A DNA stretch of 20,284 nt from assembly GCA_963745235.1 (NCBI GenBank), contig CAVUXE010000070.1, forward strand, positions 1-20,284, given 5' to 3'. The notes beneath the pieces were generated by a model that was not told the origin of the DNA, searched no databases, and saw only the letters and a program-made list of their open reading frames with translations. Below are positions 3,479 through 20,284 of this stretch, one piece after another (the first letter of the stretch is position 1; each line of letters opens with the position of its first letter). Source of the DNA: an uncultured Spirochaetota bacterium (GTDB lineage: Bacteria; Spirochaetota; Spirochaetia; SZUA-6; Fen-1364). A program made the translations under genes and the position numbers.

Positions 3479-3511
3479 CGAGTAGCCTCCCTGTTCTCTC
3501 TTTACCGCAGC

Positions 3512-4507
3512 TCAGTCCGAGCCTCTCACGGAGTTTCTGATCACCTCAATGCCGACCGCGCTGATCAGGAGGAGACCGGATACGACGTATTGCCAATACG
3601 CGCCGACCCCGAAAATGTTCAATGCGTTGTTGATCACCGCGAAAAAGAGGGCGCCGGTAAAGGAGCCGAACAAGGTCCCGCTCCCGCCCTTGAGGCTCGT
3701 TCCCCCGACCACGACGATCGCGATTGCATTCAGCTCATACCCGCTTGCCATGATTGCGTTCGCGGAGGAAAGCTCTCCTGCAAGAAGGATCCCCGCAATA
3801 GCAGTGCAGGCCCCGACGATCGAGAAGCAGATGGTCTTGATCCGGTTCACCGGAACACCGACTGTCCGGCTGGCAGTCTCGCTGCTTCCGATGGCGCGGA
3901 TGAAACGTCCGTAGACGGTCCTGCCAAGGAAGAGGGCGCACAGGATATACACGACGATCATGATGAGAAAGGGAATGGGAACGACGCCGACCAGGGTGTC
4001 GGTTCCAATCGCCCGCAGGAATCCGCTCCCAATCCCGAGAACCTGCCCCTTGGTAGCGATGAAGGCAACACCGAGGTACACGTTCATCATGCCCAGCGTG
4101 GCGATAAACGCTGGTATCTTCATCTTCGTGACGACAAAGCCGTTCACCAGTCCGAGTGCGATTCCGATCATGATCGTACCGATGACGGCGCCGCCAACCG
4201 AGGCGGGTGAAAGGATGGCGAGAGCGATTCCGCTTACTCCCAGGATGCCGGCGACGGAAAGATCGAACGCGCCCGCGATGATCAGGAGAGTCATCCCTGC
4301 GGCACCGATCCCGGCGAAAGAGGATTGGAGAAGGATGTTTGCGTAGTTGCCAGGGCGTCTGAAGTTCGGATTAATGATGCTAAGGACCACGACCGCAATC
4401 ACGAGCAGGGCCTGGATGTAATACTTCAGCAGAAGCTCCCCGAGACCCGATCCCCCCGTTGCCGTCGATTTGCCCCCCTGTATGGCCTCACGCTGTGCCG
4501 TTTTCAT
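3512..4507 (-). CDS. Monosaccharide ABC transporter permease (RbsC/BPD_transp_2 family)
   Basis: GMTLLIIAGAFDLSV, IPAFIATLG, GRFIRAIGSSETASRTVGV, GYELNAIAIVVVGGTSLKGG. Confidence 0.95.
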   Translation of the reverse strand: MKTAQREAIQGGKSTATGGSGLGELLLKYYIQALLVIAVVVLSIINPNFRRPGNYANILLQSSFAGIGAAGMTLLIIAGAFDLSVAGILGVSGIALAILSPASVGGAVIGTIMIGIALGLVNGFVVTKMKIPAFIATLGMMNVYLGVAFIATKGQVLGIGSGFLRAIGTDTLVGVVPIPFLIMIVVYILCALFLGRTVYGRFIRAIGSSETASRTVGVPVNRIKTICFSIVGACTAIAGILLAGELSSANAIMASGYELNAIAIVVVGGTSLKGGSGTLFGSFTGALFFAVINNALNIFGVGAYWQYVVSGLLLISAVGIEVIRNSVRGSD

Positions 4508-4512
4508 GCGTC

Positions 4513-5532
4513 CTATCTCCGCCTCAATATCGAGCTCACAACCAGGTCGCGACGCAGCGTATCCAGGTACAGCGCGAGGACGAGGAGCAGTCCGAGGTAG
4601 AGGTACTGGTAGAAGGCCGCCACCTTGAGGATGTTGAGAGCGCTGCTTATGGTGGCAAGGAGGAGGGAGGCGATGAGCGTCCCTGCGAGGTTTCCACTCC
4701 CACCGGCAAGGCTTGTGCCGCCCAGGACGCTAATGGTGATGGTCTGCAGCTCGAAGCCGGCTCCCAACGTCCCGTCCACAATCAGAAGCTGTGCGCTTAA
4801 CATCACACCGGAGACGGCCGCTGTGAGCCCGACCAAGCCGAAAACAAGCAGGGTCGTGCGGTCGATGTTGATCCCCGAAGCAATGGCCGCCCTTCGGTTT
4901 CCTCCGATGGCGCAGACATGCCGGCCGAACGGCATGTGGCGAAGCAGGAAGTAGAGCAAGACGAACGCGACCACAACAATGATCAGCGGCACAGGCACGC
5001 CAAGGAGCTTGCCATTGTTGATGGCGGCGAATTCCCTGTGCCCGGTGATCATCACGGATTGTCCCTTCGTGGTGAGCAATGCCACCCCGCGAATCACGCT
5101 CATCATGCCGAAGGTCGCCACGAAAGCGGGCATGCGAAGCCGTGTGACAAGAACGCCGTTTATCAATCCCAGGCAAATTCCAACCGCCAGGGCGCCGAGA
5201 ATCGCGAGCGGCATGCTCGTGACCTGCATCAGAGCTGCCGCCGTGATTGCGGTGAAGGCCTGGACCGAGCCGACGGAGAGGTCGAACCCCCCCATGGCGA
5301 TGGCGAAGGTCATGCCGAAGCCTGTGACTGCTGCGATCGAGGCAATGATGATCGTGTTCGTGATATTCGTGTAGGTGAAAAAGCCAGGCGCAATGAGGGA
5401 AGCGACAATGATAACCAGGATCAGCAGCGTCAGGACGCCGAGGCTCTCGAAAAACTGGAAAAATCGTACGATGAGAGGAGCGGAGCGCGCGGCAGTCCCG
5501 ACCGCTGCGGCTGCTTTCCTATGGGGTTCCAT
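4513..5532 (-). CDS. Monosaccharide ABC transporter permease (RbsC family), second subunit
   Basis: GMTFAIAMGGFDLSVG, MPAFVATFG, FGRHVCAIGGN, GFELQTITISVLGGTSLAGG. Start moved from 5613 to ATG 5532 (MEPHRK), which has a GGAGG RBS and overlaps the end of the ATPase gene. Confidence 0.93.
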   Translation of the reverse strand: MEPHRKAAAAVGTAARSAPLIVRFFQFFESLGVLTLLILVIIVASLIAPGFFTYTNITNTIIIASIAAVTGFGMTFAIAMGGFDLSVGSVQAFTAITAAALMQVTSMPLAILGALAVGICLGLINGVLVTRLRMPAFVATFGMMSVIRGVALLTTKGQSVMITGHREFAAINNGKLLGVPVPLIIVVVAFVLLYFLLRHMPFGRHVCAIGGNRRAAIASGINIDRTTLLVFGLVGLTAAVSGVMLSAQLLIVDGTLGAGFELQTITISVLGGTSLAGGSGNLAGTLIASLLLATISSALNILKVAAFYQYLYLGLLLVLALYLDTLRRDLVVSSILRRR

Positions 5533-7045
5533 CGCGTTCCTCCGTGACCCCGCTGCCGATCGCCAGCGCCGTGACGTTGTCCTCCGTGATCTGTTCTTTG
5601 GCCAGCGTGCCATTCATTCGTCCTGCTGTGAAGACGATGCAGCGGTCGCTGACGGCAACGAGCTCCGGAACGTCGGAGGAGCTCACGAGGATGGCGTATC
5701 CCTGCGCGGCCAGCCTTCGGATCAGGGCATGAATCTCCATCTTCGTGCCAACATCGACTCCGCGGGTGGGCTCATTGAGGAGAAAGATGCGTGACTTGCT
5801 GACGAGCGAGCGACCGATCATGACTTTCTGCTGGTTCCCACCGCTCAACTTCGTGATGAGCTGATGGGGGGAATACGCGCGGATGCTGAGCAGGTCACGG
5901 ATGCGCTCGTACTCCTTCAGCTCGCCCGCGGAATCCAACACGAGCCTTCCCCTGCGTCCGCCTGTCCGTGCTGCGCTGATCATCAGGTTTTCGAGGACCG
6001 CGAGGTCGGGGAAAATCCCTTCGGTCTTTCGGTCCTCGGCAAGCATCGAAAGCCCCTCTCGTATCGCTTCTTGGGGGTTCTTCAGCGCGGCCTGCTTTCC
6101 GTCGATCTCAACACTGCCGTGGGAGCGCTGCTCCAGGCCGAAGAGACACCGCATGAGCTCGAAGCGGCCCGAGCCGATGCGACCGGCACACCCCAAGACC
6201 TCGCCGTAGGAGAGGTCGAATGAAATGTCGCGCAGGGCACCGGGCACGGAAAGCTCCCGAACGGAAACAGCGGTACCCTTTCTCGTTTCCTCGATACGGG
6301 AGACCGTCGGCTGTCGCACAAGCGCGCGTCCCAGCATCATGGTGACGACATCATCCTGTTTAAGGTCCGCAAGCTGGCGCGTATCCACTCGGGCGCCATC
6401 CCGCAGCACGGTGACTCGATCCGCGATGCGGAAAACCTCGTTCAGGCGGTGTGAGACATAGAGCACTGCGACTCCCTGCTTCTTCATGGAGAAGATGATC
6501 TCGAATAGACGATCGACCTCCGCCGCATTCAGGGCCGCCGTCGGCTCGTCCATCATGATGACGCGGAAATCGGCGCAGAGGGCCTTCGCGATCTCGATGA
6601 GTTGTCGGTCTCCCACGTCGAAATACTCTACGCGCTGGTTCAGAGGTACTTTCAGCCCCAGGCTCCGGAGGGTCTCCTCCGCGCGACGACGAACCTCTTT
6701 CCAGTCGATGAAAACGCCCGTGCGCACCGGCTCGCGGCCGAGGAAAATGTTCTCCGCCACCGTCAATTGCGGCACGAGATTGAACTCCTGCGCGATCGTG
6801 CTGATTCCCGCCCGTTTCGCCTCGAAGGAATTGTTGAACTGTGTCGGCTTTCCATCAAGAACGATACTGCCGGCCGTGGGACGGATAAGACCGCTGATGA
6901 TATTGATCAGGGTGCTCTTGCCTGCCCCGTTTTCCCCCATCAAGGCATGGACCTCTCCGGGCAAAAGGTCGAGATCCACCTCGTTCAGGGCCCTGACGCC
7001 CGAAAACTGCTTTGTAATTTTCACTGCCTGCAGGACAGGACCCAT
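5519..7045 (-). CDS. Monosaccharide ABC transporter ATP-binding protein (RbsA/MglA type, two NBDs)
   Basis: Walker A GENGAGKST, MMDEPT, YVSHRL, second-domain LSGGNQQK and NEPTRGVDVG. GAGG RBS. Confidence 0.97.
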   Translation of the reverse strand: MGPVLQAVKITKQFSGVRALNEVDLDLLPGEVHALMGENGAGKSTLINIISGLIRPTAGSIVLDGKPTQFNNSFEAKRAGISTIAQEFNLVPQLTVAENIFLGREPVRTGVFIDWKEVRRRAEETLRSLGLKVPLNQRVEYFDVGDRQLIEIAKALCADFRVIMMDEPTAALNAAEVDRLFEIIFSMKKQGVAVLYVSHRLNEVFRIADRVTVLRDGARVDTRQLADLKQDDVVTMMLGRALVRQPTVSRIEETRKGTAVSVRELSVPGALRDISFDLSYGEVLGCAGRIGSGRFELMRCLFGLEQRSHGSVEIDGKQAALKNPQEAIREGLSMLAEDRKTEGIFPDLAVLENLMISAARTGGRRGRLVLDSAGELKEYERIRDLLSIRAYSPHQLITKLSGGNQQKVMIGRSLVSKSRIFLLNEPTRGVDVGTKMEIHALIRRLAAQGYAILVSSSDVPELVAVSDRCIVFTAGRMNGTLAKEQITEDNVTALAIGSGVTEERDGTP

Positions 7046-7112: not shown

Positions 7113-7137
7113 AGAATGACTAGACGTTGTATTGCGA

Positions 7138-8117
7138 TTACTCCGCGTTGGTCTTGTCGATCACCTTCACGGGGAAGTAGACCGACTTGGAGGCGGGATC
7201 GGAGAAATCGACTGGCTGATTATTCATGAGCTTCGTGGCAATATCTACTGCCTTCTGACCTTGTCCATAGGGATCCTGACGGATGGTGGCTGCCATGTCG
7301 CCGGACTTGATCAGCTCAATGGCGGGGGGATCCCCGTTGAAGCCCACAACAAACACGTCGGTCACACCATTCTTGCCCGCGGCCTTCAGGGCCTGGACTG
7401 CGCCCTCGGCTTCCGGATCGTTCGCCGCGTAGATGGCGGCGAGATTGGGGTTCGCCGAAAGAGTGTTCTGTGTCACCTGGTAGCCGCCTTGGACGGTATC
7501 GTTCCCGTTCAGCGTGGCGACGACCTTGAAGTCAGGGTTTTTCGCTATCTCGTCAACAAAGCCCTTGATGCGAAGATCACCCACCGCGGAACCCGGATGC
7601 AGCTGGATCGCGAGGACTTCCTTTGTCCCCGGCTTTCCCTTGAGTGCGTTCACCACGTACTGGGCAGCGAGCTTACCGCCGCCTTCATTGTCGGAAAGGA
7701 CGAAAGCGTCGTAATCCCCTGCAACGCCAACATCTCCGATGATGACCGGGATTTTCGCCTTGTGCGCGGCGTCAATGACCGCGGGGAGTGCCGGTGGCTG
7801 AACCGGAGAAACAATGAGGGCGCTGATGCCCTGATTGATCAGGTCGACGCTGCCGGATACCTCGGCCTGCTGGCTGCTCTTCTGATCCGCAAGAACGAAC
7901 CCGTATCCTGCAGCCTTCGATGCGTCCTCAATGCCCTTTGCATACGCCTGCCAGTACGGCTGCTGCATGTCATACACGGAGTAGCCGATGACGACCTTGT
8001 CCTTTTTGACGAATTGCCCGGCCGGCTCCTGCCGTGCCCTGCTCTTTCGCGCCGCCTGCGAACAGCAGGCCCGCGGTCAGGAGCGAGAGGCTCGATGATC
8101 CCCAAGGTTCTTTTCAT
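7138..8117 (-). CDS. Sugar ABC transporter substrate-binding protein (RbsB/Peripla_BP_4 type), two apparent frameshifts in the 5' end
   Basis: ATG 8117 with AAGGAGG RBS gives MKRTLGII; next frame gives SLSLLTAGLLFAGGAKEQG; third frame gives GQFVKKDKVVIGYSVYDMQQPYW, continuing as ORF 7138..7977 (SDNEGGG, AANDPEA, VVGFNG, ATIRQDP). Confidence 0.9.
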
Positions 8118-8153
8118 TTCGACCCTCCTTGAGTCAGATTGGTTTCGAGCGCG

Positions 8154-8169
8154 TTTAAAGCGCTTTAAA
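8154..8169. promoter_or_regulatory. LacI-type operator
   Basis: Perfect 16-bp palindrome TTTAAAGCGCTTTAAA with the AAGCGCTT core typical of LacI-family sites; lies at the predicted transcription start. Confidence 0.8.
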
Positions 8170-8175
8170 TTCAGT

Positions 8176-8203
8176 AGACTACGACATCCGGTGAGTTTGT
8201 CAA
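8176..8203 (-). promoter_or_regulatory. Sigma70-type promoter of the left ABC operon
   Basis: Minus strand TTGACA (8203-8198), 16 nt, TAGTCT (8181-8176). Confidence 0.65.
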
Positions 8204-8529
8204 GGGTTTCACAACAGCATAAGACCACCACTGCCCAAAATACTGGTCGAAGGGTTTGGAAGGCTCTTGCGGTTGTTTGGGGTGACTCCAAGGTTCGCTA
8301 GTTTTGCGCCCGCCCCTGTAAACAGATGCCAATCGAACCGCTTACAGCGTGTGCCCGTCTCGGGTCACAAGAAGTCTTCATTCCGGTCAAACCCCCTGGT
8401 AGACAAGAAGCCCGCTATGGGAAGAGGACGCTGGCTACTCGAGACAAAGAAGCTCATCGTTTATGAGTCGGGATCCGTTTCCTACTCTGTATAGAGGGCC
8501 ATAGTCCGATGCACGGAAACACATAGTGA

Positions 8530-8719: not shown

Positions 8720-9610
8720 ATGGAAACAAATCCCAAGGGTACTTCGGGCATCATCTCAGATCTCATCGCACGCCTTCCGGGCATTCCCGCCGCCGAGCTG
8801 CTGAAAGTCCGAGCCCGCGGGTCACTCTCAACCGATGCCTACCGGCGCGCAGTCCGCGCCTTCCTGGCCTGGGCGGAACTTCGCTCTCCAACCGCTGAGC
8901 TCTTCGCCGCTTACATCGAGTATTCACGCCAAGCGGGGGCATCAGCCTCCAAGCTCAACCGCGACCTCTACGGCGGCAAGGCGGCCATTCTACAAGCCGC
9001 TCAGCGCCAGGGCATGAGCAGCCGCGAGCTTGCCATACTGAAAATTGCCCTGGACTCTATCCCTAGGGCAAAGACGAACACGCCCGAGATTAGGGTGATC
9101 TCACCCGTGGAGCGCGCGCGCCTGATCGCAGCGCTGCCCCTACGGGTGCGCCTTATCGCACGCTTCCTCTACGCGACCGCTGCGCGGGTTACCGAGGGCC
9201 TCAAGGTAAGGCTCACGGACCTCAAGGACGATGGAGACCGTGTACTCCTACGCTTCCATGGGAAGGGCTGCAAGGAGCGTTGGGTGAGAATCCCTGTGAG
9301 TTTGTTTGAAGAGATCGAGGGAGAGTATGGGAAGAAGGGGAGGGTGTACCTGTTCGAGAGCCACAATGGTGGCCCCTTCTCAAGACAATACGTGACGCGG
9401 GAGATTGCCAGGGCAGCCCGAAGGGTGTTGAATCGGCGGATCACAGCGCACAATCTACGGCACTCACGGGCCACGGATCTGTTTCAGAAGACCAGACGCC
9501 TCAAAGGAGTATCCGAAATGCTGGGCCACGCTTCCACCGCTACTACGGCGCGATTCTATGTGCGGGACTCTCTCACTGATGACGAGCTTTTCAACGGGGA
9601 GGGGTTGTAG
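8720..9610 (+). CDS. Tyrosine-type recombinase/integrase (XerC/XerD-like)
   Basis: Full catalytic set: R156 (YATAARVTE), K182 (GKGCKER), H244-x-x-R247 (HNLRHS), H270 (LGH), Y280 (TARFY). SAM-like N-terminus (TDAYRRAVRAFLAW). Confidence 0.93.
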   Translation: METNPKGTSGIISDLIARLPGIPAAELLKVRARGSLSTDAYRRAVRAFLAWAELRSPTAELFAAYIEYSRQAGASASKLNRDLYGGKAAILQAAQRQGMSSRELAILKIALDSIPRAKTNTPEIRVISPVERARLIAALPLRVRLIARFLYATAARVTEGLKVRLTDLKDDGDRVLLRFHGKGCKERWVRIPVSLFEEIEGEYGKKGRVYLFESHNGGPFSRQYVTREIARAARRVLNRRITAHNLRHSRATDLFQKTRRLKGVSEMLGHASTATTARFYVRDSLTDDELFNGEGL

Positions 9611-9763
9611 TGAAGGGAAAGGTGAACGGCAGAGTGCGGGATTGTTCGCTTGGCACACTTCTCCATTCGCCCCAGGTTTGATTTTGCATCCGGGGAGTGC
9701 ATTTCCTGCCGTGCAAATGCCGGTCGCACCCTGATGAAGATGTCACATCCTAAAGAAGACCAA

Positions 9764-9794
9764 CATGTTATATAATCTCATATTGTCTAACATG
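9764..9794. repeat. Imperfect inverted repeat resembling a tyrosine-recombinase core site
   Basis: CATGTTATATAAT-CTCAT-ATTGTCTAACATG; arms match at 11 of 13 positions; asymmetric spacer. Confidence 0.55.
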
Positions 9795-9914
9795 CGAGGG
9801 GAGTGGTCAAATGGACTCACCTGCCGGATCCCTGGACATCGTCGCACGTCGCACGCAAGCTTGGCGCGGTCTCTATAGATCACAGGCCAGTTAAGGACGC
9901 ACAGCTCCTGCCGG

Positions 9915-11442
9915 TTACTGATCCGAAGCTATCTTTTGCATAAGTGAGGCGGTATTCGCGTATAAATCACGGTAAACGCTGTAATGCAAGTCGTAATTTC
10001 GATTGCGAGGCAAACTAGGCCGTATTACGCGATCCATCTTTACCCAACCGTCAGCCGCCCCAATATTGGGAAAAAGCCCGACGCCTACTCCCGCGAGAAA
10101 AGCGTCTCCATAGCTATACCAATACGTTGTCGAGGGGTAATCTGTTCGATACCCGCAATATCACTAACAATTTGCATCCAAACGTCGTTGCTTGTCCCGC
10201 CTCCTACAGCAAATATGCGGACTGGATTTGCACCATCCGCCCTCATTTGTTCGATGTTGTGTCGTATACCAAAACCGACTGACTCAAGAAGGGCTCTATA
10301 GATGTCTGCCCGGGTGTGGTTAAGACCCAAACCAAATATCAGACCCTTGGCAGCTGGATCAGCGAAAGGCGTACGTTCGCCAGCGAAATACGGAAGGACA
10401 ACAAGTCCGTTGGCTCCAGGAGGCGAGCGCTGCCAGTCTCGAAAGGGCAGAATAGGCACTTTCACCTCCAGTTTTTTCGATTTGCACTTCTTCCGGTGCA
10501 AACTGGTCTCGAAACCATTTTGTTATGCTCCCAGCGGTAGCCATCCCGCCAGCAAGCATACATGTTCCTTTCTCAAGGAAGGGGCCACTCCAAAAAATGT
10601 GGCGTCATGTTTAGTCTCGTCGTGAGAAGTATAAAGAAGATACTGCTGCCGTACATGACCATCATGTCACCCGGCTTGGCTATTCCCGCGCTGATGGCTT
10701 CGGCGGCTGCATCGGCAGTTCCAGTAATTACGGGCGTACCTCCTACTAGGCCACTCAATCGTGCGCCTTCTGCCGTTACCCTACCTGCTATCTCGCACGT
10801 CCAAGTAAGACGGGGAAACACGTCTCGCGGAGCGACAAGCTGTTCAACGGCAATTTCCCATCTTTGGTTGACCGTATCCACAAATGGAGCAAAACCCATA
10901 GCGTCATAGATGTCGATCGTATTCTGGCCGGTCAGACGATAAAGCAGAAAGCCACTGCCATTTACTACCTGATACGTCTTTGCCCACACCTCGGGCTCGT
11001 TTGTACGGATCCAGAGAACTTTCGGCGAAGCCGATTGTGACGACAACCGGACGCCCGCACCACAAAGACCCTCGTCGGCATCGATCGCGCGTTGCAACTC
11101 AGCTATTTCCTTTACCGCTCGAGTATCGATTCCATAGAGAATAGCCTTACGAAGAGGTCGACCTTCGCGATCGATTGGCAAAACTGCAGGCGAGATTGCG
11201 CTAAAACCAATCCCTGCAATCTGGCGAGGCGAAATTCCGCTGCTTGTGAACAAATTGTTAGTTATAATTCGAAAGTCAGCCCACCAAGTATTCTCGGCGT
11301 CATGCTCGGCCCATCCCGGGATAGGCATTTCAAGATGGTGTTCGGTTGTGCTGTTAGCCACGACTTTCCCGGTCTCTTCAACAATCACGCCTTTAGACGA
11401 GTATGTACCAATATCAAACCCGAGCAGATACCTAAATTTCAT
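9915..11442 (-). CDS. FGGY-family carbohydrate kinase, three apparent frameshifts
   Basis: LLGFDIGTYSSKG, PGWAEHD, AILYGIDTRA, GTADAAAEA; then FWSGPFL..AGGMATAGSITKWFRD; then LPYFAGERTP..RALLESVGF..AVGGG; then SYGDAFLAG...MQKIASDQ ending at TAA 9917-9915. Breaks near 10595 (A6 run), 10425 and 10115. Confidence 0.9.
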
Positions 11443-12026
11443 GATCTGTGTCCTCTATATGATTTTCTACACAAGTTTGTGAACCGCCCCATGTTCGAAA
11501 GTCCATCACAGTGTACCGATCAATTCGCCTCAACCTCGAATTCGGCAACGTTCGATCGACCGCAGGTGATGTCCCTTGCACTTGCTAATATGAACACCGT
11601 GTAGCCAAAAAACCGATCTAAGTTTTCAGGCGAAGCGTTGCCAGCCATGGGGCAATGTCTGTCCGGTGCAATTAAAAAGCCGATTACGCATTGACGTGAT
11701 CGCCCTCAAGGACCTCCTGCGTTTGCGTTATCCGCTAAAACCGCCATGAGATCAGGAACTCAGAGGCCGCTTTGTCAAACAACAGTTAAAGAATCCGTCG
11801 CCTCTCGCGAAGAATTTCGCGTTCTCGCGTTCTTATCATTCAGTCAGCTCTATGCCCTCAAAGGCGCCTGTTTGCGGCTGTGAAAGTCCGATAGGCTCCT
11901 ACGCCTTGCTCGTTTGAAGCCAGCTATCCATATAATTAACTGGCCACTGGTACCTTGAAGAAGACGTCTATTAGCTGGTGCGGCTTCCATACCCGACCAC
12001 GGGCGCAACATGTACCGACCAGCTTT

Positions 12027-13105
12027 CTAAAGGAGTATCCTTCCATGGCTCATTATTAGTTTGTCGTCAAGGAAAACCTCGCCACCATCTCGCAAGTCTT
12101 TAACAATGTCCCAGTGAATCGCTGATTTGTTCGTGCCTCCGGTCGCAGCATATGCGCGTCCCAGTGCAATATGGATTGTGCCACTGATTTTTTCGTCCAG
12201 AAGGATATCGTTGGAGAAAAACTGAATGGCTGGGTTCGTGCCAAATGCGAACTCGCCTATACGACTCGCTCCGGACATCAGATTTTAGCACAGCTTGAAG
12301 GAAGTCTTCGCAGGTACTCGATGTAGCTTCTACCAGTACGCCACTTTCCCATCTCAAACGCAAATTTGATATAAAACGACCTCCCAAAACCGCAGGATGT
12401 TCAAAAAAGATTCGGCCGTTAACCGTCGACTCAACGGGAGACGTCGCGATCTCGCCGTCGGGCATATTCTGTCTACCGTCAGCTACTTCCCATTTTCGCC
12501 CTTGAACAGAAAACTTGAGATCGGTTTCATTTCCAACGATTTGAACCGTTCTTCCCGCATTCAAGAGAGCAGCCCAACGATTCCACTCTCCGCTCTCCTT
12601 GGTCCAGTCTAGTAGACAACCATTGAAAAAAGCGTCGATAGCTGTCTCCTCGTCAACACCCGCTTGCTGCGCCAGTGAGCCGTTCGGTACCCGAACCAAG
12701 CACCATCTAGTCTTTTGCCATCTAAGTGTTGAGATTCTTCCCATGGCGCTTCGAAGAGCCGAAAGTTTTTCAGAAGGAATGTCCCAAAAAACAGCAGGAT
12801 TGTGGGCTCCGCGTAGCCCAAAATAGACATTAGCCCAATCCATCCCATATGCCTCAATTTCAGGCACCCATTCGATCTGATCGGTTCCGCCATATTTCAG
12901 CAACATGCGGTTGAATTCTTCTGAAAGCATCTGAACCTGTGGATAGCCTCCGGCCCGGATGCACGCAGTGTAGACTGCGTTGACTAGTGGAAGTCTCAAT
13001 CTCTGTCATAGCAATCATAACCCTATCTTTTGGTTTAACTCCAGCCGATCGAACAACGAGCAACTCGCCAAGTTGTTCCCACCGTTTCTCCACTTTCATA
13101 TCCAT
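12027..13105 (-). CDS. M29 family (AmpT/AmpS thermophilic metalloprotease) aminopeptidase-like protein, two apparent frameshifts
   Basis: ELLVVRSAGVKPKDRV; NMPDGEIATSP; RIGEFAFGTN, ILLDEKISGTIHIALGRAY, NKSAIHWD (metal-ligand motifs). AAGGAG RBS before ATG 13105. Breaks near 12990 and 12278. Confidence 0.9.
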
Positions 13106-13138
13106 AAACTCCTTCGTATTCCCTAAATATCCAACGAG

Positions 13139-14192
13139 TTACGATTTGTTTCGTCCCAGGCGAACGACTTTGTTAACAACAAAGAATAGTATGAAGACAA
13201 TCCCCCACGCAAACTGTTTGAAGAACGAACTCCCTTGGGTTCCAGATAGTAGCATGTCAGACCCTGTAGACAAAATCTGAAAGATAAACAAAGAAAACAG
13301 TACTCTGATAACGCTGCCAATTCCGCGATCGGCACCTGACACAACCGCAATCAATATAGTGAGCAGAACATATGTCTGCGTGCCATATTCGAAAGAGACT
13401 GAACTCGTACGGCCCATTATTACGATTCCTGCCAAGGCACCAAAAAATCCGCTGACGGCGTAAAGCTTCCACGTAATTGTGAAGTTTTTAATCCCTGAAA
13501 ACTTTGCGGCAGTTGGGTTCGTTCCAAGCATTCGCACTTCATAGCCAAAGGATGTCCGGTTAAGGACCACGCCAATCACGACAGCTGCGATCAAAAACGC
13601 GATAAACGCGATTGGTATTCCGTCTAGTGTCCCGTTTCCAATCACTGAAACCTGCGTGGGAAACCCGGTAAGTGCCGTACCCTTTGTCAACCCCACCGTT
13701 ACCCCTTCGTACAACGTCATCGTGCCCAATGTTACTAAGATTGGCGAGATCCCCCAGCGGCCGATCAGGAATCCACTAAACGCACCGCATGCTGCTCCGA
13801 CAATCATAGCAGCAAGCAGGGAACTTGCCAAAACGATCCCGGCTTGCCAGTTCGAGGTCACAGCATGAGCGCTCATGAAATGCAATAACACAATTCCTGC
13901 TATTGTGGCTGATAGATTGGCATTGCCGTTGATTGATAGGTCGATGCCTCCAATTACGATCGTGAGCATCATCCCTAATGTCATCAAGCCAACTTCCGGG
14001 AAGCTGAATGGCCATGGTCGCCAATGCGGCGTTCGATAAGAAGCCTTTGGTAGTCACGCTGAAAAAGAGAACAACAATAATGCAAGCCGAAAGCAATACT
14101 AAGGTCTCGCTTTCTCGTCGCAAGGAAGCACCGACGCGAGTTGCTATCCCTTCTGTCCGTCTTCCCTTGAGCTTATTGCCCCAAGTTTTCAT
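13139..14192 (-). CDS. Sugar ABC transporter permease, one apparent frameshift
   Basis: MKTWGNK...ATMAIQLP, frameshift near 13998, then EVGLMTLGMMLTIVIGGIDLS, ISPILVTLGT, GTNPTAAKFSGI. Confidence 0.9.
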
Positions 14193-14207
14193 ATGGCAGC
14201 CTTGCGA

Positions 14208-15250
14208 TTACGAAAGCTGAGCGGTAACGCGGCTAGCCTTCGATATGCGACTCTTCGTAATCGCGGGAATCGCGATGAAAATAATCAAAGCCAATCCCGT
14301 GACCAGCCGTTGCCAATCGGCGGTAATCCCGAGATAGATGAGTACGCGTTGAATTTCTTCAAGCAGAACAACACCAAGGATTGCACCAATTACAGTTCCG
14401 CGACCTCCCCAAATCGAAGCTCCGCCAATAATTACTGCCGCAATTATATTCAGCACACGATCGCTGAAGTTTAGGGGCGAAAAATATTGATCTAGAGCGC
14501 CTGCTACGACGCCAGCAAAGGCCGCCAAGAAACCGATTAAGGCAAATAAGCCACGAATTAGCGCCTTCCAATTGTATCCGGTACGCGCCGCTACCTCTCT
14601 ATTGCCGCCAATACTATAGAGACCCCTGGCCAAAAACCGTATATTTTAGCAGAAACCAAATGCATAGGGCGAGGACTACGACATAAATAAGGGATACTTG
14701 AAGTCCTGAAGTCCCGGCGTGGGGATTTTTAACAGTAACTAGCACATGGGTCGAAAAACCCACCAAGCCATGCGGCATCTTAAAATTGTACACCGCCCCA
14801 ATGAAAAACAACGTAAAGCCATACCATAGTGCGTTGAAAGCCAGCGAAACATTAAAAATGGGAAGATCAAATTGGGAGATTAGGTAGCCCTCGAGAAAAC
14901 CCACAACCACTCCCAGAAAGCCGGGCGATCACAAAGTACAGCGCTATTCCTCCATTATATCCAAAGTGCAAGAGGAGCAAATGAGTGCCGAATGATGTCA
15001 TCGCAGCGATTGCAACGAAAGAAATATCAACTCCCCCCGAAATCAAGACCATTAACACGCCTAGAGCCAAGATACAGTTTGGAATGGTACTTCGCACAAC
15101 ATCAAATAGCGTCGCTAAAGATAGAAACGCGGCATTCCTTGCCCCAACAAGTACAGCCAGCATAACAATTAGAAGGAATACAATGCTCTCACGTGCAAGC
15201 ACTTTTTTGCTCCATGCAGCTTTTCGGTGCGCTGGCCGAGCTTTGGGCAC
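14208..15250 (-). CDS. Sugar ABC transporter permease, two apparent frameshifts; 5' part in frame with the upstream ATPase
   Basis: LGVLMVLISGGVDISF (in ORF 14867..16783), then ORF 14614..14910, then RGLYSIGGNREVAARTG and IIAAVIIGGASIWGGRG (14208..14633). Possible own GTG start at 15250 after AGGGGA. Confidence 0.85.
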
Positions 15251-15259
15251 CGATTCCCC

Positions 15260-16783
15260 TGAAACAGCCTTTACTTCGGCAGGTTGCTCAGAAATCAATT
15301 CTCTGCTCAACTCTTGCTCGTTCATCATCTCTCGTACAAATTCCCTCGCAATCCTTCCCTCTCGCATGAGAAGTACACGATTGCAAGTCTGCAATAGTTC
15401 GGGAACATCATCCGACACAAGAATTATGCCCATTCCAGCTCTAGTCAGCTCGCGTATTAGCCCGTGAAGGTCTGCCTTAGAACCTACATCCACACCCACA
15501 GTTGGAGCATTTAGAAGAAGTATTTTAGGATTGCTTGCAAGCCACTTGCCAAGTACCAGACGTTGCTGATTTCCACCTGACAGGCTGCTTGCCGGGAGCC
15601 GAGATGTAGGAGTTTTTATGTCGAGCTTACGAAGCCATTCGTCTGTTTTTTGCTCCTTCCTTTTGTCTAAAAGGAGTCCAATCTTATTGATTAGGCTATG
15701 TATGACACGCACAATAAGATTGTTAGATATCGACTGCTCGAGAAATAGGCCTTCACGTATTCGATCTTCTGGAACATAGCCTATTCCTCTAGCCACAGCA
15801 TCGGAAATGCTTCGCAATTTTTCCTCATTACCTTCGAGGTAGACTTTACCTGACATAGCAGGAAGTGCCCCAAATAGAGAAAGCGCAACTTCTGATCTGC
15901 CTGATCCGAGGACCCCTGTAATCCCCAGCACTTCGCCGGGTTTGAGTTGAAACGTGATATCGAAAAAGTATGGCGCAGCTGTTAGTTTTTCGACCCGCAG
16001 CAGAGGTAACGCATTTTCATCGCCTAAACTAAAAGATAGTGCGCCTGTATCTATCGTCCGTCCTGTCATGTAGAATGTCATGGTCGGAATGTCAAGGTCC
16101 CGAGTGCGCTCATCGAATACTTTTTCACCGTTTCGAAGAATAAGTGTATGCTCCGATATTTGTTTTATCTCGTTTAGTTTATGACTAACGAAGAGTATTG
16201 ATATCCCCTTTTTCTTCAAGTCGCCGATGATTTCAAATAGATAACGGATCTCGCGCTCTGTGAGAGCTGTCGTTGGCTCGTCCATAATGATTAGTCGAGC
16301 GTCTTGAAGGAGAGCCTTGGTGATCGCAATGATTTGTTGATCCGCTGTGGTAACTGTCTCAACTAGTGAATCCAGGTCAACCTCGACTCTGACCTTTGAA
16401 AGACCTTCTCTGGCGATTTCATTGACCTGTCTCCAGTTGACAAACCTTTCGCCACTGGAAATCAGGTGATCTACAGCTATGTTCTCCGCTACGGTCAAGT
16501 TTGGAAAAAGAGAGAAGTCCTGATAAATAACATGGATCCCCTCTCGTATCGAAGCAATTGGTGTTAAACGATCATAGTGACGACCATTGATGGCCAGGTC
16601 ACCCTCGTCCGGATTGTAGACTCCGGAAATTATTTTGATTATTGTGGATTTTCCTGATCCATTTTCTCCTACCAAGCAGGCAACCTCGCCTCGGTCGAGA
16701 GAAAAACTTACGTCGTTAAGAGCCTTCACACCTGAGAAGCGCTTACTCAGGTGCTTTACCTCAAGCAATTTATCTTCCATCAC
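15260..16783 (-). CDS. Sugar ABC transporter ATP-binding protein (two NBDs); no in-frame stop before the permease, so the 3' boundary is approximate
   Basis: GENGSGKST, IMDEPTTAL, VSHKL, YVPEDR, LSGGNQQR, LNAPTVGVDVG. Confidence 0.93.
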
Positions 16784-16817
16784 CCGAGAATCCTTATCTG
16801 CCTGCTGCTCGAAGTAA

Positions 16818-16847
16818 CGGCGAGGGAGGTCTCATCCCTCCCCGCCG
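16818..16847 (-). terminator. Intergenic stem-loop between binding-protein and ATPase genes
   Basis: CGGCG(A)GGGAGG...CCTCCCCGCCG: 11-bp stem with one bulge and no strong U-tract. Confidence 0.55.
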
Positions 16848-16883
16848 CCCTTGATTCTGTTCAAAAATAAGGATGTTTCAGCC

Positions 16884-17873
16884 TCAATAATTGTACTGAT
16901 CCATATTCTGAGGCGTGATCTTTATCCACGCCGATCCGTAGATCACTGGTACCCCATTGGAATTAGTAACGAGATGAATATGATTATACCCAGGGACTTT
17001 AAGGTCCATACCATCAACGATTTTTTCGCCTCTCAGAACTTTGAGAGCGACTACATTTGAGGCGTATCCTTGGGCAGCCGGATCCCAGCAGGTCGCCAAG
17101 CTGATCGCTCCGCTTTTTAGTAAGTCTCCAGAGTAAGAGACAATGCTCGTGCCAACGTCTGCGATTTTTCCATCCAGCCCAGCTTCCTGAATTGCACGAC
17201 CGGCGCCGGTGACGTCACCCGCAGCCGATCCCTCGACTCCCTTTACATCTGGATGACTCGCCAAGACGTCTTTCATGACGCTGTAGGCGACGTTTATGTC
17301 TTCCTTGCTTTCATACAGACCGATCCGATGCATCTCTGGATAGTGGTTTTTTTGATAAGCGAGAGCTGCATTCACCCATTCCATGTGGGAGTCGTTACTG
17401 AGTGCGCCAACAAACTGGATATAGTCTCCCTTCTCGTCCATACGCTTCGCGAGTTCTTGCATGATCATTTCGCCATATGCTTTGTTATCAAACGCCTCCA
17501 CGTCGTAGTTTGCGTCCTTTACATTGGCTGCTTCCATAGTCACTACGATTATACGGGCGTCCATCGCCTGCTTTTGGACCGCCTCTTGCTGCTCTACGCC
17601 ATAGGGGTCGTTCATGATTGCTGCTGGGTGCTGCGCGATCAAAGTCTGAATAATGTTGATCTGCTGAGCTGAATCCGCAACAGACGGACCCTGCATGAAA
17701 GCATTTGCGTTATTGTCCTTGCCGAACTGTTTGATCCCTGTCTCCATTCGCGTAAACCAGTTAAAAGCGATCGATTTGACAACCGTTGCAAATACCGGCT
17801 GTGGAGCCGCAATTGCAATCGATGTCACCACCGTTGCCAACAAAACCGCAACGATCAGGATTTTCTTGGCCAT
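16884..17873 (-). CDS. Sugar ABC transporter substrate-binding protein, LsrB/RhaS-like family
   Basis: Signal peptide MAKKILIVAVLLATVVTSIAIA; VVKSIAFNWF, QGPSVADSAQQ, WDPAAQG, DLKVPGY, C-terminal NMDQYNY. GGAGG RBS. Confidence 0.92.
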   Translation of the reverse strand: MAKKILIVAVLLATVVTSIAIAAPQPVFATVVKSIAFNWFTRMETGIKQFGKDNNANAFMQGPSVADSAQQINIIQTLIAQHPAAIMNDPYGVEQQEAVQKQAMDARIIVVTMEAANVKDANYDVEAFDNKAYGEMIMQELAKRMDEKGDYIQFVGALSNDSHMEWVNAALAYQKNHYPEMHRIGLYESKEDINVAYSVMKDVLASHPDVKGVEGSAAGDVTGAGRAIQEAGLDGKIADVGTSIVSYSGDLLKSGAISLATCWDPAAQGYASNVVALKVLRGEKIVDGMDLKVPGYNHIHLVTNSNGVPVIYGSAWIKITPQNMDQYNY

Positions 17874-18010
17874 GTACTAGCACCTCCTCCATTTGGTTTC
17901 GCATTGGTTGCGCTCAGCTAAAGACCACAAGTTAGACACCCATTTGATAGCATCACAAGTTTAACGTGTCGAATGTGATCAATAGCGCACGACCTTTGCT
18001 CTCTTTTGCG

Positions 18011-18039
18011 ATAATAGCACTACTTAAACCGTCTGTCAA
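18011..18039 (-). promoter_or_regulatory. Sigma70-type promoter (extended -10) of the right ABC operon
   Basis: Minus strand TTGACA (18039-18034), 17 nt ending TGC, TATTAT (18016-18011). Confidence 0.75.
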
Positions 18040-18053
18040 TCAAAAACTGATTG
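18037..18053. promoter_or_regulatory. Candidate operator between the divergent promoters
   Basis: Inverted repeat CAATCA-AAAAC-TGATTG overlapping the -35 of the leftward promoter. Confidence 0.4.
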
Positions 18054-18102
18054 TTTATTTAAGGCATTCGTGCATAATTTGACGCGTAAGCTCTTATTAG
18101 TA

Positions 18103-18131
18103 TTGACTTTTCCCAATGTCAGCATTACTAT
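18103..18131 (+). promoter_or_regulatory. Sigma70-type promoter of the DeoR-SgcQ unit
   Basis: TTGACT (18103-18108), 17 nt, TACTAT (18126-18131). Confidence 0.7.
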
Positions 18132-18294
18132 ATGAGCGGAATATGCTCGATTTTGGCAGTTAGGAAGGCGTTTCGCCATAGGGATGAGTCATATCTTGGA
18201 GGCTTTGCTATCAACGGTTGTAGACAAGGGAATGGGCACGCGAATTGGAAGCTTCGTGGTAGAACTTCCTTCCTGCGAATGACACATTTTGTCC

Positions 18295-19071
18295 ATGAAA
18301 CATTTTGAAAGAATACAGGAAATAGCGAGAATCTTCGAGGCGGAGGGCAACGCATCCACTGTCTTTCTTGCGAATACCTTTAACGTCTCCGAATCATCCA
18401 TTCGTCGAGACATTAATTACCTCATATCTTCCAACACGCGCGTGCATCTTAAGCGCGTCCATGGCGGGGTAATTCTTCAGGATAAAAGCCCGAAGGCGTC
18501 GAGTACATGTTCGAGGTGAAGCTTGCCTTGAACAGCAAACTGAAAATTGCGCTCGCGAAAGAGGCAAGCACGATATATTGAGAACGGTGACCACATCATA
18601 CTCGATTCCGGTTCTACTTGCTACTATCTAGCTCAACACCTGCATCACAAAAAAGGGCTATGCGCCATGACACTCGACGTGAAAATCGCCGAGGAACTCG
18701 GAAGGTATCGAGATATCGAATCCAGCATCATTGGCGGGCTGATACGTCCCGGTTACTACACCGTCGGCGGGATTCGCGCGCTGGAAAACCTGGATCAGTT
18801 CACGGCAAACAAAGTCTTCATGTCATTGGACGCAATCGACGTCGAACACGGAATCACCAACGCCTCCGAGTTCGAAGTTGGCGTGAAACAGAAGTTGATA
18901 CGGATGGGAAAGAATGTCTACGTTCTCGCAGATCATACTAAGTTCAATTCCCATACCCTATACAAGGTTGCCGACATTTCAGTCATCAACACTATCATCA
19001 CCAACAAAGAGCTGGACGAACACTACGCTGATCTTGTCCGTAGTAAAGGGGTCAACCTAATACTGGTATGA
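18295..19071 (+). CDS. DeoR/GlpR family transcriptional regulator with two compensating frameshifts
   Basis: HTH LANTFNVSESSIRRDI and RVHGG; linker EGVEYMFEVKLALNSKLKIALAKEA in another frame (about 18492-18567); then YIENGDHIILDSGST, IIGGLIR, LADHTKF. Confidence 0.92.
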
Positions 19072-19133
19072 CGAAGGCAATATGTCGTCTGGTCAGTGAG
19101 TTGGCTAAGCGCGTGAACACAGGAGGTTTTTCG

Positions 19134-19946
19134 ATGAATGGAAATTGGACTGAGCAGGTCTTTGGCTGTAAGAAGCCGATAATCGCGATGTGTCACTTCG
19201 GCGCTCTGCCGGGTGATCCATCTTTTGACAAGAAGGGTGGGATGGCTGGAGTACTGGAATGGGCGCGGAAAGATCTGGCGGCGCTGCAGAAGGGCGGCGT
19301 CGATGCCGTGATGTTCTCCAACGAGTTCAGCCTACCCTATTTGACGCGTGTAGATACCGTAACGGTGGCGAGCATGGCCCGCCTGATCGGTGAGCTGAAA
19401 GCTGATATCCGCGTACCATTCGGTGTGAACGTCCTGTGGGATCCGATCGCGTCACTCGACCTCGCCGTGGCGACAGGGGCGAAGTTCATACGGGAAATTT
19501 TCACCGGAGTCTATGCAAGTGATTTCGGCCTCTGGAACACCAATTATGGCGCCACGGCGCGACATCAGAAGGCAATCTGCGCAGACGAAGTCAGGCTGCT
19601 GTTCAACATCGTTCCGGAAGCGGCGCGATATATGGCGGACCGGGACATCGCGGACATCGCCCGGTCAACGGTATTCAACGCTCGTCCGGACGCCCTGTGC
19701 GTGTCGGGACTGACTGCGGGCGCTCCAACCGCCGTTCGGACCGTCAAGGAAGTCAAGGAAGCGGTTGGAGATACGATCGTGTTCTCCAATACGGGCGTAA
19801 AGCTGGAGAATGTCGAAGAACAGCTGATGGTCGCTGACGGGGCAGTCGTCGGCACCACCTTCAAACAGGGCGGGACTTTCGAGAATCATGTCGACGAAGA
19901 GCGTGTCCGAGCGCTCATGAAAAAAGTGCGAGAGCTTCGTCAATAG
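19134..19946 (+). CDS. sgcQ: BtpA/SgcQ family TIM-barrel protein
   Basis: KPIIAMCHFGALPGDP, LQKGGVDAVMFSNEFSLPY, PFGVNVLWD, FIREIFTGVYASDFG, DALCVSGLTAG, NTGV, ADGAVVGT. Start moved to ATG 19134, which has an AGGAGG RBS. Confidence 0.92.
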   Translation: MNGNWTEQVFGCKKPIIAMCHFGALPGDPSFDKKGGMAGVLEWARKDLAALQKGGVDAVMFSNEFSLPYLTRVDTVTVASMARLIGELKADIRVPFGVNVLWDPIASLDLAVATGAKFIREIFTGVYASDFGLWNTNYGATARHQKAICADEVRLLFNIVPEAARYMADRDIADIARSTVFNARPDALCVSGLTAGAPTAVRTVKEVKEAVGDTIVFSNTGVKLENVEEQLMVADGAVVGTTFKQGGTFENHVDEERVRALMKKVRELRQ

Positions 19947-20284
19947 GCGAGGTCCCAAGCCCCACCCCCCTCACCAGCCTTTGCGAGTTTGCGAGGCGCT
20001 CCTCAGTTGGGTCCTAAGCGCATGACCAAAGTTATGTCTGGAGTTACCGAACAACCTCTATCTAAACCCCGCCAGCGGCCCAAGTCGCGCGATGTCTCGT
20101 CAGCGAACCCTCTTACGTTTGCCTTTGGAGTTAAAGCCCAGCAGACTGGCGTTCTGGTAGCAGGACTTTCCTCCCGGTTTCAGGCTATTCAACGATCTCT
20201 TACAGTACGACGACGACCCTCCTGAATGGTACGACTGTCGGAAGCAATGGAGTTTCGGAATCGTTCACGCTACTAGTGTTCCGT

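Follow-up and report, generated by a model that had tools for sequence, protein, structure and literature searches.

What does a bacterium break down with an operon that joins a sugar importer and a sugar kinase to an aminopeptidase-like hydrolase and to SgcQ? For about three decades no biochemical function has been assigned to the BtpA/SgcQ family, to the Escherichia coli sgc operon or to the M42 genes found in phosphotransferase system (PTS) operons. The question is raised here by positions 9915-19946 of a contig from an uncultured Spirochaetota bacterium; the window that we analysed is this entire contig (C70; 20,284 bases), from a genome of 5.85 Mb in 104 contigs (85.7% complete, contamination 5.9%) whose relatives are Spirochaetota metagenome-assembled genomes (MAGs). 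An earlier note had read the stretch as a divergon analogous to sgc, with an ATP-binding cassette (ABC) importer and a kinase in place of the PTS and an M29 in place of an M42 hydrolase. Our results indicate that the eight genes at 9915-19946 very probably form a catabolic cassette that is conserved and widespread, the window having one copy of it. This cassette would be the counterpart of the sgc operon, with 'ABC + kinase + M29' where sgc has 'PTS + M42', and it is almost certainly an inducible uptake-and-catabolism system. It is a new version of an operon type that is itself uncharacterised, and it offers a practical way into the unsolved E. coli operon. As a whole, an account that combines this cassette with the mechanism proposed below and with assembly errors as the cause of its broken frames has, in our judgement, an even chance of being right.

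Gene content and recurrence of the cassette

Pfam analysis of the window confirmed all the gene families that had been named, and their order, strands and coordinates agreed. According to the map of open reading frames (ORFs), two units are transcribed apart from a 415-bp divergent intergenic region (17874-18288). On the reverse strand lie the genes for an intact CUT2-type periplasmic sugar-binding protein (SBP; 16884-17873; Peripla_BP_4, 4.5e-48), an ABC ATPase with two ABC_tran domains (about 15281-16783; 2.5e-51), two BPD_transp_2 permeases (permease 1, 14208-15210, from Pfam and from tblastn with permease 1 of locus L069; permease 2, 13139-14192, from Pfam and tblastn), a short M29-like dinuclear metallohydrolase of about 355 aa (12027-13105; Peptidase_M29, 1.9e-29 and 1.8e-11) and a XylB-like FGGY kinase (9915-11442; FGGY_N 4.5e-43, FGGY_C 1.9e-27, and tblastn with intact orthologues). 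The gap between the permease stop (13139) and the M29 start (13105) is exactly the 33 bp that had been counted. On the forward strand, a DeoR-family regulator (18289-19071; HTH_DeoR 2.5e-11, 43.6 bits; DeoRC 2.2e-39, 135.4 bits) is followed by an intact SgcQ (19068-19946; BtpA, 9.2e-88) that overlaps the DeoR stop by four bases. Besides transport and a regulator, the cassette thus holds three enzymes, M29, FGGY and SgcQ. The genes are as the earlier note gave them, but five are broken by frame shifts as deposited, and the note had overlooked these breaks as well as the foreign origin, a 584-bp spacer and an integrase, all described below.

To see how often this gene set recurs, we searched GTDB genomes, one for each species, with an alignment of the 355-aa M29 clade. 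The search returned 230 relatives, of which the best 80 (61-100% identity) were examined with their flanks. These 80 loci come from at least seven phyla, their sources being Spirochaetota, Chloroflexota, Acidobacteriota, Armatimonadota, Atribacterota, Desulfobacterales-type bacteria and a cyanobacterium. SgcQ was found within 5 kb on the same strand in 72 of the 80, an FGGY kinase within 7 kb in 64, and both together in 60, which is the recurrent linkage of M29 to SgcQ/FGGY clusters that the earlier proposal implied. The spacing is often tight, with SgcQ within 150 bp of M29 in 47 loci and FGGY in 51, on the same strand. Among the eight loci without SgcQ, three end less than 400 b from M29 and four have full flanks; several of the 16 loci without FGGY also end less than 400 b from M29. 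All-against-all clustering of the flanking ORFs recovered M29 in 80 loci, SgcQ in 71, FGGY in 65, the ATPase in 53, permeases in 37, the SBP in 31 and DeoR in 30, and no other widely shared real genes besides these seven kinds. Atribacterota and Anaerolineae loci have the order DeoR, SBP, ATPase, permease, permease, M29, FGGY, SgcQ, which is the gene set of the window, and genomes of the same genus as the source carry a compact sgcQ-M29-FGGY operon with gaps of a few bases. Accessory genes were DhaK/DhaL (14 of the 80 loci), IMPase-family and aldo-keto reductase genes (9 each) and an Rpe-like epimerase (4); one Atribacterota locus also has an M20 peptidase and a GATase1-like gene.

Several loci depart from this pattern. 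L078, from a cyanobacterial MAG, has no FGGY gene, and DhaL/DhaK adjoin its M29. In three spirochaete loci (L072, L094 and L098), the ABC transporter genes have the same orientation as DhaK/DhaL and a small ureidoglycolate-lyase-like cupin, and SgcQ-M29-FGGY run the other way. In the Leptolinea loci (L062, L070, L073 and L075), M29 is followed by DeoR and then by an SgcQ that is 43-46% identical to the main group and forms a separate long-branched clade, with no FGGY in the flanks. L117 (G426:C1:21000-40900) is a single long operon with BtpA, two luciferase-like oxygenases, SDR, an Opp/Dpp-type peptide/opine ABC transporter (SBP_bac_5), Amidohydro_2, an IF-2B/MtnA-like isomerase, an Rpe-like epimerase, a short M29 and FGGY.

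In the RefSeq annotation of E. coli K-12, sgcX (M42), sgcB, sgcC, sgcQ, sgcA, sgcE and sgcR form one operon, sgcXBCQAER, which lies in the KpLE2 island. The window shares with it a DeoR-type regulator, a dinuclear peptidase-like hydrolase beside SgcQ, and SgcQ itself (65.5% identical); in both, as proposed here, the substrate would be phosphorylated before the SgcQ step. In contrast to sgc, which has a galactitol-type PTS IIA/B/C and the M42 protein SgcX, the window has a CUT2 ABC importer with an FGGY kinase and an M29 protein. An Rpe-like gene such as sgcE is also missing: tblastn with three Rpe-like seeds gave no match in the window, and matches in only the four M29 loci mentioned above. 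No M42 match was found in the window, and the 80 M29 loci gave none either. A full sgc-type operon (EIIC-GAT, Rpe-like, BtpA, M42, EIIA, DeoR; for example L103) is carried by a low-GC spirochaete genus, in which BtpA and M42 share one contig in four genomes and are split over contig ends in a fifth. The comparison with sgc stands for SgcQ and for DeoR, but not for M42, the galactitol-type PTS or SgcE, none of which occurs in the window.

The SgcQ of the window matches PF03437 (294.4 bits, cut-off 30) and TIGR00259 (314.6 bits, cut-off 153.4) and fails the equivalog model of photosystem I BtpA, NF045918 (140.1 bits, cut-off 400). The cyanobacterial BtpA, which acts in photosystem I biogenesis, has the first two models in common with it, whereas the context in the window is sugar catabolism. 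To survey these contexts we took two samples, one of 301 Spirochaetota genomes, 18 of them with BtpA above cut-off, and one of 301 genomes from the phylum of Bellilinea, 46 of them with BtpA (a tally that includes G373, left out of later counts); all 64 BtpA genes were taken with their flanks. Because FGGY, PfkB or PTS EIIC lies within 6 kb of 49 of these 64 genes, BtpA proteins would act on phosphorylated sugars, and these kinase and PTS neighbours are the strongest evidence that they do. Identity to the window SgcQ is bimodal among 63 sampled genes, with nine at 62.8-70% and the next at 50%. Within 5 kb of these nine, which come from two phyla, M29 stands beside three and M42 beside five (including a partial M42 at the end of G284:C99); the ninth lies at a contig end, its start. 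The narrow SgcQ orthogroup is thus paired near-exclusively with M29 or M42. A third metal amidase occurs in DeoR-controlled plasmid clusters of Sinorhizobium and Phyllobacterium, where a PIG-L family deacetylase lies beside an SgcQ of 65-67% identity. These comparisons support well the view that the exchange of PTS for ABC plus kinase, and of M42 for M29, would be non-orthologous displacement around one SgcQ orthogroup. With a narrow orthogroup that nearly always has one of three unrelated metal amidases together with a PTS or a kinase, the question of its function becomes testable, the more so as intact cassettes have cultured carriers in Bellilinea caldifistulae, Leptolinea tardivitalis and rhizobial plasmids. 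The Leptolinea tardivitalis cassette is a divergent variant without FGGY, and its SgcQ is about 44% identical to that of the window.

BtpA genes farther from the window SgcQ (29-48% identity) stand beside different partners, such as PfkB, or FGGY with an amino-acid permease and SDR. In the Spirochaetota sample, two genomes carry the ABC + M29 + FGGY cassette and several have BtpA beside a PfkB kinase and RbsD/FucU; in the Bellilinea-phylum sample, M42 adjoins BtpA in two genomes. A common context in the latter joins BtpA to FGGY and an amino-acid permease of the APC family, often alongside an SDR dehydrogenase and DeoR (L115, L131, L133, L135, L140-L142, L149, L150, L153, L154, L156, L157 and L159), that is, a sugar-kinase module fed by an amino-acid-type transporter. 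BtpA matches were found on 189 plasmid records, 108 of them from Rhizobium. On a Rhizobium indigoferae plasmid (L119), DeoR-BtpA-FGGY is followed by a gamma-glutamyltransferase-family gene, and on a Thermus thermophilus plasmid (L169) by SDR and a CUT1 ABC transporter. L112 (G379:C28:69000-87000) holds GntR, a PfkB kinase, BtpA, a PurD-like ATP-grasp protein, M42, a Bmp/PnrA-type (nucleoside-type) binding protein with the rest of an ABC transporter, and a PP-loop ATPase; here a glycinamide-ribonucleotide-synthetase homologue beside an aminopeptidase-like gene hints at aminoacyl-ribosylamine chemistry.

Candidate substrate and reactions

We propose a route in which the SBP would take up a small ribulose-like pentofuranose derivative bearing an N-acyl or aminoacyl group, and the FGGY kinase would phosphorylate its primary hydroxyl, as the PTS would do in sgc. 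A cytoplasmic M29 (M42 in sgc, PIG-L in rhizobia) would then hydrolyse the amide on the phosphorylated intermediate. SgcQ, acting as a phosphate-binding barrel enzyme, would turn the resulting sugar phosphate into a pentulose phosphate for the pentose-phosphate pathway; an Rpe-like epimerase, where present, would act after SgcQ, and DeoR would sense the phosphorylated intermediate. The amide-linked substrate is what we infer, and a hydrolytic step on a sugar-linked amide is favoured because three unrelated metal amide hydrolases (M29, M42 and PIG-L) alternate beside one SgcQ orthogroup. The earlier note had drawn its amide idea from two such hydrolases, and the finding of PIG-L in two rhizobial genera speaks for it. 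Its order of events, amide cleavage and then phosphorylation, is unlikely, because the PTS version phosphorylates on entry and the hydrolase would be cytoplasmic, no signal peptide being seen by eye on the M29 and M42 proteins. The specific sequence of amide cleavage and SgcQ reaction is put forward tentatively, and we regard it as doubtful in its details.

Several observations weigh against this chemistry, and the first concerns the binding protein. The closest relatives of the SBP in the PDB are 5BRA (6.8e-74) and 9I1M (3.5e-52). The latter is AauA of enterohaemorrhagic E. coli (EHEC), which is reported to bind D-ribulose with a Kd of about 2 uM through K37, W43, E118, H167, E196 and S223 (PMC12307932). 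In an HMMER alignment, five of these six contacts were present in the window SBP (K33, W39, E114, H163 and E191), with S223 replaced by A218. The 29 SBPs of the cassettes have the K, W, E and H invariant, either E or D at the fifth position, and Ala (24), Met (4) or Gly (1) at the sixth. Because the D-ribulose contacts are mostly kept, the pocket argues for a small ribulose-like (ketopentose-like) furanose as the probable ligand, with an exocyclic group unlike that of D-ribulose. CUT2 binding proteins usually enclose plain monosaccharides, so that a bulky amide conjugate is unexpected, and the AauA-like pocket comes close to the plain monosaccharide ligand that the earlier note itself had named as refuting its proposal. 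The SBP was below the equivalog cut-offs for both RhaS (90.6 bits, cut-off 342) and LsrB (66 bits, cut-off 384); its solved D-ribulose-binding relative offers a guide for ligand screens.

The enzymes raise further difficulties. M29 and M42 are aminopeptidase families and PIG-L is a de-N-acetylase family, and a substrate common to the three is not obvious. Outside the narrow SgcQ group, a detectable amidase was near only 6 of 16 and 4 of 48 BtpA genes, a tally that is a lower bound, as the search used seed proteins only, some from the same loci, and undercounts families without a seed. A deaminase-like role of SgcQ found no support from homology in our searches. A PDB sequence search with SgcQ alone gave nothing at E up to 1; the profile of 63 SgcQ sequences gave spurious matches to ribosome-recycling factor and weak C-terminal matches to TrpA, GGGPS and HepGPS (E 0.04-0.7); and HHalign of SgcQ against seven Rpe-like proteins reached a probability of 2.6%. 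Many polar residues are invariant in the SgcQ alignment. In E. coli, knockouts of sgcC and sgcX had no growth defect on 190 Biolog carbon sources, according to a 2026 transcriptome atlas (PMC13343008). The atlas still calls the sgc substrate unknown and reports induction of the sgc iModulon on slow carbon sources that contain nitrogen (PMC13343008). These E. coli data do not decide between mechanisms. Our literature search found no description of the cassette and no function for SgcQ.

The same pocket fits an alternative in which no amide is involved. A free ribulose- or xylulose-like sugar might be imported and converted by FGGY to its 5-phosphate, on which SgcQ and the M29-like protein would perform non-hydrolytic chemistry as isomerase, epimerase or aldolase. 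They would use the SgcQ barrel and the dinuclear metal site of M29, in the manner of the isomerase/kinase/epimerase-aldolase trios of the ara, rha, fuc and L-xylulose pathways. The retained AauA contacts, four invariant and the fifth Glu or Asp in all 29 SBPs, are consistent with such a substrate, as is the kinase, which is nearest to xylulokinases. Its orthologues in L088 and L013 reach 331 and 319.6 bits with the XylB equivalog TIGR01312, below the cut-off of 380.25, and its nearest PDB relative is 3IFR, an uncharacterised FGGY kinase, followed by E. coli XylB. The cassette has exactly three enzymes besides transport and regulator, the DhaK/DhaL genes in 14 of the 80 loci would fit an aldolase that releases an unphosphorylated triose, and Rpe-like epimerases occur in sgc-type and in some cassette loci. 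However, where three unrelated hydrolase families take each other's place beside one SgcQ orthogroup, the simplest explanation is a hydrolytic step that they share, and no isomerase, epimerase or aldolase with an M29, M42 or PIG-L fold is known to us. Free D-ribulose, moreover, needs only a kinase. In the Rbl system of Citrobacter rodentium, the kinase alone is reported to be needed for its use, a KpsF-like isomerase being dispensable (PMC12307932). Such an amide-free ketose pathway is possible, yet we would not expect it to be the answer.

The known systems for D-ribulose uptake, Aau of EHEC and Rbl, resemble the cassette in their CUT2 ABC importer, the window SBP being related to AauA, and Rbl also in an FGGY kinase that acts after uptake. 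They differ from it in their regulators, in that Rbl lacks SgcQ and the peptidase-like gene, and in that the Ser223 contact of AauA is Ala in 24 of the 29 cassette SBPs. For the route by amide cleavage, the nearest likeness is one of logic only. In the N-acetylglucosamine and N-acetylgalactosamine pathways (nag and aga), the sugar enters through a PTS, or through an ABC importer combined with a kinase. A metal-dependent hydrolase then splits the amide of the sugar phosphate, a second enzyme makes a ketose phosphate, and the regulator (AgaR) is of the DeoR type. The cassette DeoR of L032, which is a different protein from that of the window, had AgaR as its best NCBIfam match, below the cut-off. 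None of the enzymes is homologous, NagA and AgaA having the amidohydrolase fold and NagB and AgaS being unrelated to BtpA, and the cassette pocket suggests a pentofuranose, not a hexosamine. The narrow SgcQ could be the second enzyme of an unrecognised catabolic route for N-acylated or N-aminoacylated pentose-type sugars, with M29, M42 and PIG-L as interchangeable sugar-phosphate amidases and with SgcQ freeing the nitrogen to leave a pentulose phosphate. We offer this most specific form as a speculation that is rather unlikely to hold in full. Glycosylamines, pentosamines and pentose Amadori products are possible sources of such sugars. Were the amidase route correct, it would give the BtpA family and E. 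coli sgc their first enzymatic function, and thousands of genes called 'aminopeptidase' would be reclassified.

Frame breaks and origin of the copy in the window

About ten one-base indels in the deposited sequence break the genes for FGGY, M29, both permeases and DeoR, and only SBP and SgcQ are clean open frames within the cassette (ORF listing and tblastn with intact orthologues). FGGY lies in four frame segments separated by three shifts (11442-10612, 10595-10428, 10426-10070 and 10136-9930) and M29 in three segments with two shifts (13105-12968, 12990-12277 and 12272-12030). Permease 1 has three segments and two shifts, at about 14625 and at 14870-14919; permease 2 has two segments and one shift near 13998. 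No stop ends the ATPase frame, which continues into permease 1 as a 638-aa ORF. In DeoR the frame is lost and then regained at about 18517-18560, with three stops inside this short out-of-frame stretch; the HTH_DeoR domain and the DeoRC sensor domain are both present, with the stretch between them.

To check these frames, Logan contigs from four soil-metagenome runs were aligned to positions 9000-20284. Short contigs (151-400 b) matched the window with 0-1 mismatches. All three contigs that cross a frame junction were one base short in these data from three of the runs, at 10592, 12275 and 13998 respectively; a fourth contig was one base short at 17876, three bases upstream of the SBP start. 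Deletion of the three junction bases in silico merged the frames into open frames of 364, 325 and 355 codons: without base 10592 the first two FGGY segments join, without base 12275 the last two M29 segments join, and without base 13998 permease 2 is one open frame of 355 codons. Because three independent contigs lack one base at the junctions and its removal reopens the frames, the breaks are probably for the most part assembly errors and not gene decay. Our confidence is tempered by the coverage, since independent contigs reach only three of the roughly ten junctions and do so at a depth of 2-3.5, a range that the tool flags as error-prone.

A cluster of pseudogenes had been the first impression from the ORF map; it was set aside after the junction contigs and the in silico deletions, and we keep it as a rival. 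In such a scenario the breaks would be real, and the window would hold a non-functional copy of the cassette that was acquired by transfer and lost selection. The concentration of about ten breaks within 10 kb, against none visible in the 9.6 kb to the left, would suit decay, as would the low GC content at third codon positions (GC3) of the block, the lost stop of the ATPase, the 584-bp M29/FGGY spacer without a counterpart in relatives, the small number and low depth of the covered junctions, and the split M29 and FGGY frames of a genome of the same genus (G008). On the other hand, every junction that is covered is one base short in an independent contig and each deletion restores the frame. 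These contigs otherwise show 0-1 mismatches, as expected from the same or a near-identical strain, and the fragments are still 50-77% identical to orthologues with all catalytic-site residues kept. Decay thus appears improbable, and for this genome assembly error is the likelier cause of apparent pseudogenes in practice. In G008, the locus on contig C24 (L014) has M29 and FGGY each as two ORFs, with SgcQ about 9 kb off; indel errors or decay may account for this.

Base composition, sequence identity and gene phylogeny all set the cassette apart from its host. The genome has 61.2% GC and the cassette block 45-52%. Of 2771 4-kb windows across the genome, 18 are below 50%, and the block is one of these low-GC regions. 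GC3 is 0.42-0.55 in the block, 0.60 in DeoR and 0.65 in SgcQ, compared with 0.72-0.76 in the left half of the window. A DNA search with the 10 kb in 30 relatives matched only SgcQ, M29 and FGGY (64-71% identity) and no transporter. With Atribacterota and Anaerolineae copies, identities were 76.7% for SgcQ (Atribacterota), 68-72% for M29 (Atribacterota orthologue), 64% for the ATPase (to that of L069, residues 1-496) and 61% for the SBP, as compared with 58-66% with spirochaetes of the same genus; DeoR was 41% identical to that of Atribacterota. In a maximum-likelihood tree of 63 SgcQ sequences (quick IQ-TREE search; 9 of 71 ORFs, namely L028, L029, L053, L066, L085, L087, L091, L092 and L096, were left out of alignment and tree as truncated or over-long), the window sequence shares a clade (SH-aLRT 99) with 9 rows from Chloroflexota and 2 from Atribacterota, and the 14 Spirochaetota rows all lie outside it.

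On its left the low-GC block is bordered by a tyrosine recombinase of the phage-integrase family (8720-9610, forward strand; Phage_integrase, 7.8e-22), followed by the tail of the repeated integrase element (9611-9812), which was delimited by blastn against the genome itself. Copies of the integrase occur on contigs C30 (97% identical) and C11 (95%), the shared sequence ends near 9812, and past this point the sequence is unique in the genome. With paralogues at about 50% identity on at least six more contigs, the integrase and the roughly 200 b behind it form a multi-copy element. The C30 copy has an in-frame 9-nt gap and the C11 copy a 7-nt insertion that shifts its frame, which is not decisive on the genome-wide rate of indels. 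Judged by these sequence signatures, the cassette is, in this genome, a horizontally acquired island beside a multi-copy integrase, a reading that follows in part from the lack of a transporter match in the same-genus search. A chimeric assembly join through the repeated integrase is nonetheless possible, because the join to the rest of the contig passes through the repeated element; metagenome contigs diverge at the integrase tail, with loose ends at 9601-9811.

The M29 clade and the other features of the window

The M29 fragments of the window match PF02073 with 103.1 and 43.9 bits (cut-off 27). Six of six aligned intact sequences of the clade share E215, E281, H308, Y315, H327 and D329 (L016 numbering) without variation. 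The first four of these could be aligned with AmpT, and the same motifs are visible in the window fragments. These Glu/Glu/His/Tyr/His/Asp positions we take to be the metal-binding and catalytic set of M29. The cassette clade shares them, and the Pfam family, with AmpS, PepS and AmpT. It differs from them in being shorter (about 355 aa, compared with 408-418 aa for the solved chains) and in lying in sugar operons; its profile finds AmpT, PepS and AmpS at E of 1e-21 to 1e-18, and no NCBIfam model matched it. That the protein is an ordinary aminopeptidase placed beside sugar genes without functional meaning would agree with its database name and its conserved M29 site, but this is strongly disfavoured and very improbable given a distinct clade of 355 aa outside the NCBIfam models and only distantly matched by AmpT, PepS and AmpS, the close same-strand linkage to SgcQ (47 of 80 loci within 150 bp) and FGGY (51 of 80) in at least seven phyla, and the canonical longer M29 genes that carrier genomes such as G331 have elsewhere. 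Metagenomes from soil, sediment and digesters are rich in the clade: at least 6912 clusters at 90% identity, among 8000 scored, matched at E up to 1e-10, and the existing names say only 'aminopeptidase'. A solved function would thus correct a large block of annotation.

Between M29 and FGGY, the window has a non-coding spacer of 584 bp (11443-12026), compared with about 15-50 bp in relatives; it holds no ORF, has no second copy in the genome and matches no Rfam family. No Rfam family and no tRNA were found in the window as a whole, and inspection of the DeoR-SBP and M29-FGGY spacers revealed no convincing operator-like repeats.

To the left of the integrase, two long ORFs overlap on opposite strands, one at 7132-8301 (forward, 389 aa, no Pfam match) and the other at 7138-7977 (reverse). 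Farther left, positions 1209-7045 hold a second sugar-uptake locus. It comprises a LacI regulator (1209-2276, forward; ORF and Pfam scan), a 401-aa protein without a Pfam match that is possibly a binding protein (2273-3478, reverse), two BPD_transp_2 permeases and a double ABC_tran ATPase (5519-7045, reverse). This locus has a host-like GC content, and all of its frames are clean.

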